From: Eledone cirrhosa | Lineage: Eukaryota | Direction of reading: 5' to 3' | Length of the DNA: 64,000 bases | NCBI GenBank assembly: GCA_964016885.1 | Contig: OZ024743.1 | Location: 99,696,001 to 99,760,000, forward strand | Shown: positions 1,201 through 34,796 of the stretch, piece by piece | How the letters are laid out: each line of letters starts with the position of its first letter | Position numbering within the stretch: the stretch's first letter is position 1 | Program-made: the position numbers and the translations under genes | The notes under the pieces: model-generated | Databases searched by the model: none | Seen by the model: only the letters and a program-made list of their open reading frames with translations | What the model was told of the DNA's origin: nothing

Positions 1201-1266
1201 TATTTTATTATATATATTTCAAGGGCAACCAAGGCAAATTATGGTGCACTTTCATCAGATAAAATA
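1201..1266 (-). ncRNA. Minimal type I hammerhead ribozyme
   Basis: Minus strand TATTTTAT-CTGATGA-stem II-GAAAT-ATAT-ATA-ATAAAATA; perfect 8-bp stem I, palindromic stem III loop. Confidence 0.8.
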
Positions 1267-1380
1267 CAGATTTGTTTTATAAATAAATATTGACATACCC
1301 GGAAAAAAGACAACCTTAACGGTTGGAGCTTCCTGGATAGTGGAGATAATATTTTATTGAGGGTAATACAAAGTTATGAG

Positions 1381-1720
1381 TGAGTATGCAAATGAGTGTC
1401 CGAAAAGTTGAAAAGATAACGGTTTATTTAAATTAAACTGTTGGAAGAAGATGATATGTAAGGGAGAGAGAAACAGAGAAAGTTATTTCTTCTTTCACTT
1501 AGATATATTTACGCTCTGTATATTTTTCCATTAAAATTTATTTCTTAGTTCGTTCTGACTATCTTCACTATCACTATGTATAATCGTTCTTTCTTAAATC
1601 TTCTCTCTTTCTCCTTCCTTTTCTTTTTTCTCTCTCCCTTACATATCATCTTCTTCCAACAGTTTAATTTTAAAAAAACGTTATCTTTTCAACTTTTCGG
1701 ACACTCATTTGCATACTCAT
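1381..1720. repeat. Inverted repeat, ~95-bp arms (1381-1475 / ~1627-1720), each with ATGCAAAT
   Basis: TGAGTATGCAAATGAGTGTCCGAAAAGTTGAAAAGATAACG and its reverse complement CGTTATCTTTTCAACTTTTCGGACACTCATTTGCATACTCA. Confidence 0.85.
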
Positions 1721-1939
1721 ATATATATGTGTATTTATATATATATATATACACATATATATATATATATATATATACACACATATATATATATACACAT
1801 ATACATATACACATATATATATATATATATAATTTCGTTGACAAGTATATCTATGTGCACAGAGACACAGATATATCGCCCTTAGTATGACAGTGTGGTT
1901 TTAGCTCAATGTAGGATAACTAGTACCCTACAGAGCCGT

Positions 1940-2222
1940 TATAAGTTTAGGAATAACCAAAGAGTACTTAGAAATACAGTGTTTTATTAGCTAACAGTGT
2001 TTCATCCATACCCTATGGCAGGAATCATCAGAGCCTATAAACAATGTTTTTCTATATAGCGCTGGTCTTGGGACCCCCCTACTGGTCCTTTAACCTTGTT
2101 CTGGTGACTGAGCATGATGGAGCCGGCAACCTTTGATATATTCTTGTTTATAGGCTCTGATGATTCCTGTTAGCTAATAAAATAATGTATTTCTAAGCAC
2201 TCTTTAGTTATTCCTTAACTTA
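1940..2222. mobile_element. Fold-back hammerhead-bearing element (arms ~1940-2045 / ~2143-2222)
   Basis: Arms are reverse complements; right arm lacks stem II/GAAAC through an internal deletion. Confidence 0.75.
1989..2035 (-). ncRNA. Minimal type I hammerhead ribozyme
   Basis: GGCT-CTGATGA-TTCCTGCCATAGGGTATGGAT-GAAAC-ACT-GTT-AGCT on minus strand. Confidence 0.7.
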
Positions 2223-2421
2223 CACACACACACATATATATATATATATATATATATATATATATATATATATATATATATATATTAGAAAGTGAGGTTT
2301 TTTTTACAAAATGTAAAATAACCGAGGTGTCCTACACGAGTGAAAGTATAAAGAAAAGAAGATGAAATCGAAAATGCAACTGGAGTCTTATTTTTTTTTA
2401 AATATATATATTTATTTGGTT

Positions 2422-2459
2422 CCTTTACCGGTTTCGCAGTTCTTCTGATTTTCAAAAGT
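2422..2459 (-). ncRNA. Degenerate hammerhead in the Penelope pLTR
   Basis: ACTT-TTGAAAA(for CTGAAGA)-TCAG-AAGAA-CTGC-GAAAC-CG-GTA-AAGG; core substitutions suggest it is inactive. Confidence 0.6.
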
Positions 2460-3953
2460 AGAGTTGAGATGGAGGGTCTGTGGTTTTTCTCACATCTGCT
2501 TGATCTCTGAATGTTACTTGTTTTATATGGAAAAAGTGGCTCGAAATGCCAGGTTTTTCGAGAAGTAATTTGATTGGTTGGTCAATAATTATAATAAATT
2601 TCGCGCCAGTTCACGTTACAAAGTTCTTCAAACAAGGGGGGCGCGTCACAGTTTGTTTTTTCTTATATGAGTGTTTGAATTTCTTTTTACTTAAAAAAAG
2701 GGGGTCTCACGAAGGCTTTTTTTTAATAAACGTAATTTGATTGGTTATAAATGAAATTATTGCTGTCACGTGAACAAGTTTTCATTAAATTTTCGCGCTC
2801 TTATTTGGAAATCCATTCTGTAGCCTTTTTAGAGAATTTTATAATAAGTAAAAGATAATGGTCAAGAGAAATGGGATGGGAGAATTGTTCTGGTTCAGTG
2901 AATATGGTTAGTTCGCTGGGGTGTCAGAATTCAGATTTTCTATTGAATAAAGAAAGTAAAGAAATGTATGTTTATTTGTGTGTGTGTTGTGTGTGTGTGT
3001 TTGAATTTCTTTTTACTTAAAAAAAGGGGCTCACGAAGGCTTTTTTTTAATAAACGTAATTTGATTGGTTATAAATGAAATTATGGCTGTCACGTGAACA
3101 AGTTTTCATTAAATTTTCGCGCCCTTATTTGGAAATCCATTCTGTAGCCTTTTTAGCGAATTTTATAATAAGTAAAAGATAATGGTCAAGAGAAATGGGA
3201 TGGGAGAATTGTTCTGGTTCAGTGGATATGGTTAGTTCGCTGGGGTGTCAGAATTCAGATTTTCTATTGAATAAAGAAAGTAAAGATATGTATGTTTATT
3301 TGTGTGCTTGTGTGTGTGTGTGCGCGCGTGTTTGTGTGTGTGTGTGTGTGTGTGTGTGTGTGTGTGTGTGTGTGTGTGTGTGTGTATGTGTGTGTGTGTA
3401 TGTGTGTGTGTGTTTGAATTTATTTTTACTTAAAGAAAGGGGCTCACGAAGGCTTTTTATTAATAAACGTAATTTGATTGGTTATAAATGAAATTATGGC
3501 TGTCACGTGAACAAGTTTTCATTAAATTTTCGCGCCCTTATTTGGAAATCTATTCTATATACCCCCAGCAAAAATCTATCCAACATACTCCCAGCAAAAC
3601 TATAAGGATAATCCCAGAAACCATAGACAAAACTATAACCCTACTAACAAAAACCGAAGATCCCTGAACACAAGGCAGGACCCGATCCGCAGATCACAAC
3701 CCACACAAAACCTATTCCAAAACCGTAGAACCCTGCCCACACAGAGCCTGTTCCAAAACCGTAGATCCCAACCCACACAAAGGAACAAAATCTACAACCC
3801 GGACTATCAACAAACCGAACCTCAATACGTCCGAAACTTCTATACAAGACCACACAACAACAGGGGAAATACCATTAGATATAATAATACCATTGAAAAA
3901 ACATTCCAGAAAAATCATTTTTTAGACCAAGGCTACAGGACCCACGACACCCG

Positions 3954-33004: not shown

Positions 33005-33073
33005 ATTTTATTATGCGCATTTCAAAAACAAACATCATCATGCAATAATATTTGTGTTTTCATCAGATAAAAC
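33005..33073 (-). ncRNA. Minimal type I hammerhead ribozyme
   Basis: Reverse-complement copy of 33166-33234. Confidence 0.8.
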
Positions 33074-33165
33074 AGGAGAACATGATATGAAGGCTAAAAA
33101 ACACTATGTTGATTTAAAACTGCACTATCCACAAGTGTTTTTTAGCCTTCATATCATGTTCTCCT

Positions 33166-33234
33166 GTTTTATCTGATGAAAACACAAATATTATTGCATG
33201 ATGATGTTTGTTTTTGAAATGCGCATAATAAAAT
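33166..33234 (+). ncRNA. Minimal type I hammerhead ribozyme
   Basis: GTTTTAT-CTGATGA-long stem II-GAAAT-GCGC-ATA-ATAAAAT. Confidence 0.8.
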
Positions 33235-33517
33235 ACATGGAACTCCTTTAACCATCTTTTGATCTTATATTATATATATATATATATATATATATATATA
33301 AGTTAAAAATGTACATCCACATATGTATACTGAAATACTAGTATGCATATGAATACACACACGTATACATATGTAGATGTACCGAGTTTTTTCACTGGTC
33401 ACTTTACTGTGAGTGTCCAGCTATTCTGTATGTAAACACACAGACAAACCGGTTTTTAGAGTCATACTGGTTTTTGAGGAAACACCTTTCCTCTATTCTC
33501 CAGAAAGCCAGACAAGG

Positions 33518-33562
33518 AATATTGAACTAGTTTCGTTGTTGTTACAACTCATCAGCAATATT
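33518..33562 (-). ncRNA. Minimal type I hammerhead ribozyme (R1)
   Basis: Reverse complement of 34162-34206. Confidence 0.9.
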
Positions 33563-34161
33563 TACCTATCTTCCGGCCTTTCTAGAGAATCGTAAAAGCA
33601 CATATCGTTATATGCTTTTTCTATGAAAATTAGTAGTGGGCAGACCAATTTGCATAGAGCGTGAGTACGTACCGGTTCAACGGAGACGATAAAAACAAAT
33701 AACGAAACGAAACCAAATTTCGCTTCGCCTGCAACTCACTTTTGTCTGGCTTTCTGGAGAATAGAGGAAAGGTGTTTCCTCAAAAACCAGTATGACTCTA
33801 AAAACCGGTTTGTCTGTGTGTTTACATACAGAATAGCTGGACACTCACAGTAAAGTGACCAGTGAAAAAACTCGGTACATCTACATATGTATACGTGTGT
33901 GTATTCATATGCATACTAGTATTTCAGTATACATATGTGGATGTACATTTTTAACTTAATTGTTTAAGCGTCAGTCATACAAAAGTGAGTTGCAGGCGAA
34001 GCGAAATTTGGTTTCGTTTCGTTATTTGTTTTTATCGTCTCCGTTGAACCGGTACGTACTCACGCTCTATGCAAATTGGTCTGCCCACTACTAATTTTCA
34101 TAGAAAAAGCATATAACGATATGTGCTTTTACGATTCTCTAGAAAGGCCGGAAGATAGGTA

Positions 34162-34206
34162 AATATTGCTGATGAGTTGTAACAACAACGAAACTAGTTC
34201 AATATT
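34162..34206 (+). ncRNA. Minimal type I hammerhead ribozyme (R1)
   Basis: AATATTG-CTGATGA-GTTG-TAACAA-CAAC-GAAAC-TA-GTT-CAATATT: canonical core, 7-bp stem I, palindromic ACTAGT stem III. Confidence 0.92.
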
Positions 34207-34796
34207 CCTTGTCTGGCTTTCTGGAGAATAGAGGAAAGGTGTTTCCTCAAAAACCAGTATGACTCTAAAAACCGGTTTGTCTGTGTGTTTACATACAGAA
34301 TAGCTGGACACTCACAGTGAAGTGACCAGTGAAAAAACTCGGTACATCTACATATGTATACGTGTGTGTATTCATATGCATACTAGTATTTCAGTATACA
34401 TATGTGGATGTACATTTTTAACTTAATTGTTTAAGCATCAGTCATACAAAAGTGAGTTGCAGGCGAAGCGAAATTTGGTTTTGTTTCGTTATTTGTTTTT
34501 ATATATATATAAATATATATATATACTGTACAGAAGCCCCTCACATATATATTTAAATATAATTATATATATTTATTTTGGTGTGGTGTGAAAAACAGTA
34601 TTCACATCTCTTATGCTCATTTTGCATTTCATATCAATCTTAAAAGAACCAGGGTCAAAGCATTTGAATTAATATCACAGATTAAAAGCCCTTGAAAAGC
34701 ATGCTCCAGTATGGCCATAGACCAATGATTGAAACCCAGCAAAAGAAAAATATAATAAAAACTACTGGAACTAATTTTATTAATATTAGAAGAACA

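Follow-up and report, generated by a model that had tools for sequence, protein, structure and literature searches.

Insertions of EN+ Penelope-like elements (PLEs) are described as carrying an inverted 5' copy and an optional tail of 30-40 nt (PMC3846280, PMC8557442). How the inverted copy and the tail arise is treated as an open question in PMC8557442 and PMC11167929; self-priming was proposed in PMC3846280, and 'EN-mediated resolution' was offered for the tail in PMC8557442. For the PLE Poseidon of Anolis carolinensis, both strands are cut and extended in vitro at AT-rich DNA, and two internal start sites of reverse transcription at a stem-loop bound the genomic tail, the ribozyme cut not being a start site (PMC11167929). 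The sections of the Poseidon study covered here hold no explanation of the inverted arm. Animal non-LTR retrozymes are non-coding tandem units of a few hundred nucleotides with a type I hammerhead and low GC, are proposed to depend on PLEs and are described as head-to-tail repeats (PMC7229834; bioRxiv 10.64898/2026.07.22.740005). In L1 twin priming, the two cDNAs overlap or miss each other by 1-10 bp (PMC11702581). Head-to-head pairs with a tail are not accounted for in the parts of PMC7229834 and bioRxiv 10.64898/2026.07.22.740005 consulted, and a literature search, in which subscription papers were thinly covered and older Penelope papers may discuss the matter, returned neither head-to-head non-autonomous hammerhead elements nor twin priming by PLEs.

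Two-armed insertions in the 64-kb window

The window, by which we mean the whole 64-kb stretch of DNA analysed, contains eight insertions with two arms. One is a broken PLE; the other seven are short and non-coding, and six of these carry hammerhead motifs. These structures mostly show the known PLE signature of an inverted arm with a one-sided tail, as the initial annotation had recognised. Like published EN+ PLE insertions, they combine a head-to-head copy, partial tandems and a tail on one end only with a (TA)n bias, no discernible target duplications and a hammerhead in the terminal repeat (PMC3846280, PMC8557442). However, their tails measure 55-110 nt (314 and ~370 nt in two cases) instead of 30-40 nt, and most carriers here are non-coding elements of 190-1200 nt. 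Local inverted pairs are more numerous than expected by chance, since the microsatellite-masked window held 14 against 0-1 in each of 10 shuffles; nine fall in seven of the two-armed elements and the remaining five outside them. Strict hammerhead matches numbered six in the window, compared with a mean of 0.07 over 30 shuffles, and all lie in the elements E1, E6, R2 and E7. Rfam matches in the window were all below their gathering scores.

The structures named in the initial annotation all exist where it placed them, and several of the regularities drawn from them held in part. Judged by hammerhead or ORF strand, the outer ends are sense 3' ends in seven of the eight insertions, the eighth (E5) carrying neither marker. 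The arms overlap by 56 to >450 nt. The offset, counted from where the short arm last matches the long one to the end of the long arm, is 55 nt in R1a, 77-78 in E5, 77 in R2, 83-84 in E6, 110 in E2 (65 if its last 45 nt are flank), 314 in E1 and ~370 in the PLE. A stagger of ~55-85 nt, advanced as common to all, therefore describes four of seven measurable offsets (R1a, E5, E6, R2) and is not a rule. The ends are generally fused to microsatellite, with two exceptions: the short end of E2 adjoins (CA)6 before (AT)n, and the right arm of R1b is joined to E7. Nor are the families, presented as unrelated, all so, as R1 and R2 have a tail hairpin in common and 15 nt at the hammerhead are the same in E1 and E6. 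Within the window there are two copies each of R1 and E5 and one of each other family. The insertions stand in trains (E1-E2-PLE, R1a-E5, E6-R2) in which TA tracts are reused repeatedly. The inversions end at element ends and never include flank, and no TA remnant is present at any of the eight head-to-head centres. Arm divergence ranges from near-identity in E6 and R2 to 95% identity in E1 (over 101 nt) and R1b (over 65 nt), ~5% divergence in the PLE, and five substitutions plus a 24-nt deletion in E2.

E1 (1067..1719), which was absent from the initial annotation, pairs a minus-strand long arm (1067-1481; hammerhead core 1258, cut after 1209) with a plus-strand short arm (1620-1719), the hammerhead being confined to the former. 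E2, given earlier as 1940-2222, most likely reaches 1832 (1832..2222); a 99-nt centre separates its long arm (1832-2044, minus strand; core 2031) from its short arm (2144-2222, plus strand), where the deletion falls in the hammerhead. E5 (26426..26616) is a perfect 56-bp palindrome around base 26482, with its tail on the right. Its solo copy E5b (22404..22538, minus strand) is without an inverted arm, and has a long end at (TA)n and a 5' start identical to those of the E5 arms. Neither the strict nor the relaxed hammerhead pattern matched in 26420-26700 or 22400-22700, which leaves E5 outside the retrozymes. E6 (32883..33273) has its long end on the left, a hammerhead in each arm (cores 33066, minus strand, and 33173, plus strand) and a centre of ~30 nt. 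In E1, E2, E6 and the single-armed E7, hammerheads are present, each arm is shorter than one unit and the window holds no second copy. A tRNA-SINE palindrome with staggered, TA-flanked ends also lies in the window (21828-22204), showing that another route to such shapes exists.

The PLE and the retrozyme-like elements R1 and R2

The PLE (2286-7392) consists of an inverted long arm on the minus strand (2286..3555; a partial 324-nt unit, two complete ones and then ~370 nt missing from the right arm) and a 5'-truncated plus-strand body with the short arm (3556..7392), which ends at (TA)n. A degenerate hammerhead-like motif lies at 2447 in the inverted arm. The body includes an RT reading frame (3897-5525) with an RVT_1 match (E 4.6e-6, below the curated cut-off), followed by a C-terminal GIY-YIG nuclease (28.1 bits, above the cut-off of 22.6) that has the CCHH motif. 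RT and nuclease share a single ORF in full-length relatives, as in EN+ PLEs, whereas this copy is broken by frameshifts near 5480-5520 and 5925. The inverted terminal copy with a one-sided tail is likewise that of an EN+ PLE, although its offset far exceeds 30-40 nt. The linker between RT and nuclease reads CX4CX2C, which fits the Neptune/Nematis pattern CX2-5CxxC, and all three cysteines are invariant in 80 of 80 aligned relatives; judged by this motif, the element is a Neptune/Nematis-type PLE. The PLE protein query returned one weak locus among 88 candidates, which was left out of account. The left arm holds at least three units and the right arm two (6713-7370, plus strand). Five substitution columns, one of them at a homopolymer edge, and two one-base indels set two left units apart from the right-hand pair, and no column groups units in register. 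Post-insertion conversion or duplication within an arm could be another source of this pattern.

R1a (25629..26343) is a two-armed hammerhead element with a period of 434 nt, whose tail-less arm (25629-26150, minus strand; 1.2 units, core 25879) is longer than its tail arm (26149-26343, plus strand), with a 2-nt microhomology at the centre. The tail arm has ~40 nt upstream that are missing from the adjacent left unit and differ from the outer unit at three sites; at one site the tail arm agrees with R1b and both left units differ, and this two-template signal comprises few sites. The second copy, R1b (23223..23843), has a minus-strand long-end arm (23223 to ~23345) and a plus-strand right arm (core 23603) that stops ~26 nt earlier than that of R1a, so that the short end is not exact in R1; the long end recurs in both copies. 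At 23843 begins E7 (23843..24000, plus strand; core 23905, cut after 23950), which ends at (TA)n, 5 nt past a hairpin.

R2 (33299..34502) has a period of 467 nt, and its short arm (33299-33745, minus strand) is nested within its long arm (33742-34502, plus strand; 1.6 units), with a 4-nt exact microhomology at the centre (8/10 if imperfect). Like non-LTR retrozymes, R1 and R2 are low-GC, non-coding tandem repeats whose unit includes a type I hammerhead; unlike those described, they stand head-to-head (PMC7229834; bioRxiv 10.64898/2026.07.22.740005). The hammerhead was found by a relaxed pattern in R1 and by a strict match in R2, where Rfam HH9 scored 37.7 bits (gathering 52). The R2 tail hairpin (33996..34022, plus strand; second copy 34463-34489) has a homologue in the tail hairpin of R1, centred on 26326, and a comparison centred on the loop shows 12/12 pairs kept in both, two of them with changes on both sides; MAFFT chose another 5-nt register for the hairpin 5' strand. 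The long ends of R1 and R2 do lie directly before or inside TTTATCGT, as first annotated.

Both types of R2 end appear in an independent sequencing run, X1, which was available as assembled contigs and carries 69% of R2 words. TA-joined ends at 34035 (5 contigs) coincide with the long end in the window, and a TA-joined end at 33966 (5 contigs) lies 8 nt from the short end in the window (33958), the short end thus being inexact; both come from the six loose ends listed of 44, and no strand-change joint was among those listed. By alignment, 33966 falls within ~3 nt of the R1 short end. In X1 (3 contigs) and X4 (one 496-nt contig), R2 units run on beyond both ends, and the end of one is joined to the start of the next, a joint compatible with tandem DNA or a circle alike. 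An exact 27-nt R2 pattern had no match in metagenome contigs, and the matches listed in the search of sequencing runs included no RNA run.

The hammerhead cut is situated 46-303 nt upstream of the element ends. The cut itself was rejected as a primer site, as no end coincides with it. Of the 5' ends, only two come close to a hammerhead edge: that of the R2 long arm, 9 nt past the cut, and that of E2, 13 nt ahead of the core. TA-register microhomology of 2-5 nt was found at six of nine ends with a known uninterrupted continuation (null 20%, P ~0.003). A hairpin precedes the long end in 5/8 cases compared with 22% of control positions (P 0.016) and the short end in 1/7, by a criterion fixed after the folds were seen and with R1 and R2 not independent; by this criterion there is no hairpin in E5, E6 or the PLE. 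In E1 and the PLE, the short end is upstream of the hammerhead, has 1 nt of microhomology and may have arisen by later deletion.

Routes to an inverted arm and a one-sided tail

We consider it probable, though well short of certain, that, at a break in a (TA)n tract, each of the two ends primes reverse transcription at an internal site of its own, that a hairpin often lies between these sites, and that the cDNAs join by microhomology. The initial annotation had proposed priming from both strands of a cut (TA)n tract, and this part probably stands, given the two discrete sites, the recurring long ends and the TA microhomology; it had undersold the literature, in which a lizard PLE had already been shown in vitro to start reverse transcription at two internal sites and to cut and extend both strands (PMC11167929). 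A Neptune/Nematis-type enzyme would use as templates both its own RNA and, in trans, short, retrozyme-like, hammerhead-bearing tandem or circular RNAs. Its GIY-YIG nuclease would cut both strands of the tract, as the literature on PLE targeting suggests. One broken end would then prime at an internal site a few nucleotides 3' of the stem-loop, yielding the long arm with the tail whose ends we observe, and the other would prime at a second internal site upstream, yielding the tail-less arm. Priming may be aided by 1-5 nt of A/T complementarity. The two first-strand cDNAs of sense RNA would copy the same region, perhaps from two RNA molecules in the PLE and R1a, and possibly from one undegraded or circular RNA copied twice in R2, E5 and E6; PLE RTs are not known to have RNase H. 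The cDNA 3' ends would meet through the 2-12 nt of microhomology seen at the junctions, giving a centre that differs per insertion. Failure of the second priming would leave a solo arm with a long end (E5b, perhaps E7), and the offset would be set by family-specific landmarks and not by a fixed distance. As in Poseidon, there are two internal sites near a stem-loop, ends away from the ribozyme cut and an AT-rich target; unlike Poseidon, whose start site is not homologous to the cut DNA, six of the nine ends here with a known continuation show TA microhomology, and the clade is another one (PMC11167929).

The published reading of head-to-head junctions is that one cDNA folds back and copies itself, with a nuclease or a microhomology join fixing the second end and leaving the tail one-sided. 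We regard this as unlikely overall, although E5, with its 1-nt loop and 56/56 identical bases, E6 and R2, with its nested short arm and 8/10 homology at the turn, fit it equally well. In R1a, neither arm could be copied from the other, given their lengths, the 40 extra nucleotides and four differing sites, and the two PLE arms have unequal numbers of units and disagree at seven grouped sites. Since the arms of these two elements differ in patterned ways, their sequences favour two templates over fold-back, where PMC3846280 (2013) favoured self-priming on an antisense template. Fold-back alone also leaves the recurrence of the second R2 end in another run unexplained. Assembly or amplification chimeras, which three palindromes with near-identical arms might suggest, are highly improbable: the arms have diverged in E1, E2, R1b and the PLE, the inversions halt where the elements do, and X1 contains both types of R2 end.

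Twin priming as in L1, on one linear RNA with a primer at its true 3' end and another internally, is improbable. It would account for the sense 3' polarity of both outer ends, a transcript end at the long site made otherwise than by the ribozyme would suit it, and the microhomology of the short end to the target and at the centre resembles L1 inversions; indeed, both DNA ends are RT-extended in L1 too, with microhomology at the second priming site and the inner junction, and rare opposite-orientation insertions from two transcripts are known there (PMC11702581). However, priming in L1 is at a poly(A) end, with cDNAs that barely overlap, whereas here the sites are internal and family-recurrent and the palindromes long (PMC11702581). 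There is no poly(A) at the ends in the window; the earlier claim of one primer at the RNA end probably fails because no end equals the ribozyme cut and the tandem unit of R1 and R2 runs straight past the long end, so that both ends lie inside it. Twin priming in the L1 sense, which had also been invoked, fails because the arms overlap so extensively compared with 1-10 bp in L1, and the two-template patterns in the PLE and R1a speak against it too. Two independent, opposite single-armed insertions into one (TA)n tract, fused later by deletion or hairpin repair, are a very doubtful source. Tracts are reused, the solo arms E5b and E7 exist, SINE pairs face each other on either side of a tract at 647-925 and are fused at 21828-22204, and arms from different templates would follow. 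Yet the centres retain no TA, partners are always of the same family though several families share tracts, complete pairs invariably combine a long with a short end whereas both solos end in the long type, and E5, E6 and R2 are too young for later fusion.

Extending double first-strand synthesis to PLEs in general, such that they routinely integrate from both (TA)n ends, either side of a conserved hairpin and often from two RNAs or one circle, is more tentative, and we hold it possible without favouring it. If true, a single step would account for both the inverted copy and the tail, the self-priming model would be replaced, and a route of retrozyme RNAs back into DNA would be shown. The arms that seem to derive from different RNA templates in the PLE and R1a bear on how PLEs integrate, and the common integration signature ties retrozymes to PLE enzymes. 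Short, young and abundant non-coding families pack a whole insertion into 200-1200 nt, so that both ends, the centre and the variants of each arm are open to comparison across thousands of copies; fold-back and two-template synthesis can therefore be tested directly from a genome. Annotation can also mistake such palindromes for MITEs or microRNA hairpins. The window gave many miRNA matches below threshold, which reflect palindromes and microsatellites.

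Head-to-head insertions at (TA)n tracts

Self-comparison of the window revealed eight two-armed insertions, covering 9273 nt in all. Seven are short non-coding elements, namely E1 (1067-1719), E2 (1832-2222), R1b (23223-23843), R1a (25629-26343), E5 (26426-26616), E6 (32883-33273) and R2 (33299-34502), and the eighth is the Penelope-like element (PLE) at 2286-7392. They are arranged in trains in which neighbours have (TA)n tracts in common, within animal DNA rich in microsatellites. With microsatellites masked, 14 local inverted pairs were found, compared to 0-1 per shuffle, under a 600-nt limit at which the PLE arms lie too far apart to be counted. 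Nine of these pairs are parts of seven of the eight elements and the other five are mostly SINE pairs, where SINE and LINE are names that we presume to apply to the other repeats of the window.

Judged by the strand of the hammerhead or ORF, the arms have their 3' ends outward in seven of the eight insertions, as the initial annotation had it, with the orientation of E5 not assignable. The offset, that is, the tail by which the long arm runs past the last shared base of the short arm, is 55 nt in R1a, 77 nt in R2, 77-78 nt in E5 and 83-84 nt in E6, bearing out the four values first read from these elements. However, the general rule of 55-85 nt fails, the offset being 110 nt in E2, 314 nt in E1 and about 370 nt in the PLE; R1b lacks a second TA end.

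Strict hammerhead motifs number six (mean of 30 shuffles, 0.07), lying in E1, E6 (two), R2 (two) and the single-armed element E7 (23843-24000, + strand), and a relaxed pattern adds E2, R1a, R1b and a degenerate motif in the left arm of the PLE. Both R2 motifs are Rfam HH9 matches scoring below the gathering score. By sequence, R1 and R2 fit the definition of non-LTR retrozymes, to which E1, E2, E6 and E7 probably also belong; E5 failed the hammerhead test for retrozyme membership. The coding element, classed by its domains and linker and not from a tree, is an EN+ PLE with a Neptune/Nematis linker. The nearest named relatives of its protein are octopod and bivalve, and the match to one from Octopus bimaculoides spans 62% of the query at 77% identity.

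The insertion architecture is an established PLE hallmark. In the available parts of two accounts, PLE insertions often have, besides an inverted 5' copy, a one-ended tail of 30-40 nt, and the (TA)n preference is tied to a cysteine linker (PMC8557442; PMC3846280). The portion available of an octopus repeat annotation gives Penelope families with no mention of ribozymes or palindromes (PMC13282606). The present insertions add to this tails that are longer and specific to each family in non-coding hammerhead families, recurrence of ends between data sets, a hairpin ahead of most long ends and two cases arguing against self-priming.

Position and structure of the outer ends

Self-comparison showed the long end to be common to R1a and R1b, and likewise to E5 and E5b, a solo copy of E5 (22404-22538, - strand). 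When four public runs were aligned to one R2 unit (33830-34296), 1082 contigs of run X1 matched, with 44 loose ends, and among the six listed the best supported were the two joined to TA (5 contigs each). One, at 34035, is the long end of the window's R2, and the other, at 33966, lies 8 nt downstream of its short end (33958) and, in the alignment, within about 3 nt of the R1 short end; the R1 versus R2 difference in offset agrees with indels in the tail. A related data set therefore supports the presence of two end regions in one family, R2, with the short one varying by several nt. The R2 end-to-start joint was present in three X1 contigs and in the single contig of run X4, and no strand-change joint was among those listed for run contigs on the R2 unit. 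The two raw runs among the four gave no aligned read. Part of this unit is carried by 20 of the 24 runs listed (17 studies), and the family is seen in two coded organisms (X1, X4) besides the window.

Measured from the hammerhead cut, the two ends lie at 46 and 129 nt in E6, 51 and 161 nt in E2, 220 and 275 nt in R1, and 226 and 303 nt in R2; the E1 long end lies at 142 nt, the E7 end at 50 nt and the E1 short end 172 nt upstream. A TA-register match of 2-5 nt occurs at six of nine independent ends with known continuation (null 0.20; P 0.003). Microhomology at the E1 short end is 1 nt, and the E2 and PLE short ends are ambiguous.

Five of eight long ends (E1, E2, R1a, R2, E7) follow the close of a stable hairpin by 2-14 nt. 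Among 789 control positions the share is 22% (P 0.016, by a criterion chosen after the folds had been seen), and one of seven short ends has such a hairpin. The E6 long end has an 8-bp hairpin slightly below the energy limit, that of the PLE a hairpin within a larger fold, and E5 a weak one only. The fold advantage over shuffles is greater in sense than in antisense in most terminal stretches, except E5 and E5b. Aligned from the loop, the tail hairpins of R1 and R2 are identical at 20 of 27 positions and keep 12/12 pairs, two of them with changes on both sides.

Origin of the two arms

Structure, polarity, end recurrence, microhomologies and arm differences are direct observations, and two-ended internal priming is, on balance, the probable source of these insertions. 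A (TA)n tract would be cut on both strands, both broken ends would prime at two internal sites, and the two cDNAs would then be joined. In the available text on a purified lizard PLE, both strands are cut and extended, the RT has two internal start sites matching the tail, ribozyme cleavage is dispensable and the enzyme is modelled as a dimer (PMC11167929); a term search of its three text supplements gave no match, and genomic ends are the subject of supplementary figures that may be relevant. At the centres, the two cDNA 3' ends share microhomology that is exact over 4 nt in R2, 2 nt long in R1a and imperfect over about 12 nt in the PLE, where the ORF side is reconstructed from local PLE repeats.

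Fold-back of one arm from the other by self-priming is unlikely, with R1a and the PLE arguing against it. The tail-less arm of R1a (about 520 nt) exceeds the tail arm (about 195 nt), which begins about 40 nt farther upstream than the adjacent unit, differs from the outer unit at three sites within those about 40 nt, and at one site agrees with R1b against both left units. Because of these lengths, the extra stretch and the differing sites, fold-back origin of either arm is, as far as sequence can tell, impossible. The PLE has at least three 324-nt units in its left arm and two in its right; five substitution columns and two indels split left from right, none sorts by register and 20 are singletons. 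Parallel mutation cannot yield that grouping; conversion inside one arm could. The arms of E5 (0/56 differences), E6 and R2 (one internal difference in about 440 nt) do not discriminate between one and two templates, and the variants common to both R2 arms and absent from X1 contigs fit one molecule or one source locus.

The initial annotation had one strand priming at the RNA end. Such twin priming on a single RNA is improbable, since in R1 and R2 the tandem unit continues past the long end, and therefore the RNA need not terminate at either of the two ends. For more-than-unit copies, circular templates have been proposed in the part available of one report (PMC4209133). Of twin priming, priming from both ends is retained, as in L1, but two defining L1 features, in the sources as available, are missing here. 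Later fusion is less probable still and an artefact hardly credible, and several routes may run in parallel.

Other junctions, repeats and base differences

The 5' start base is identical in both E5 arms and E5b (26482 and 22538), and this points to an RNA with a fixed 5' end, e.g. a ribozyme cut, with the upstream part outside the window. The R2 long arm starts at 33742, 9 nt past the hammerhead cut, as if the RT had copied a cleaved RNA almost to its 5' end; the same arm also holds an uncut hammerhead. At 23843 the right arm of R1b is joined directly to E7 in the same sense; either E7 inserted later or the template was switched from one RNA family to another. At 21828-22204 a tRNA-type SINE and a partial copy in inverted orientation are joined tail-to-tail, with (TA)n at either outer end. 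The inverted segment shows 99% identity to the copy at 28849-28956 but about 94% to the SINE with which it is paired. One (TA)n/(ATC)n tract (647-925) has two SINE 3' ends facing across it. A 61-nt direct repeat (90%; 32298-32358 and 34516-34576) flanks E6 and R2; a simple target duplication is ruled out by its distance of about 500 nt from E6. Small AT-rich palindromes at 17789-17836 and 39357-39413 adjoin no microsatellite or hammerhead.

Six sites in a 20-nt span at the tail hairpin (33992-34011) are G in the R2 of the window and A in X1 and X4, and such sites recur at 34459-34478 and at the start of the left arm. A makes up 84-100% of X1 depth, and these sites are six of the seven majority differences, a clustering matched in 0/400000 random draws. 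The cluster could reflect A-to-I editing fixed by reverse transcription, with the direction of change ambiguous because R1 carries A at one of these sites, G at two others and T at a further one. None of the sites follows G (0/4 after G/C versus 6/10 after A/T; P 0.085), and five of the six lie opposite U, with pairing kept in the sense RNA only.
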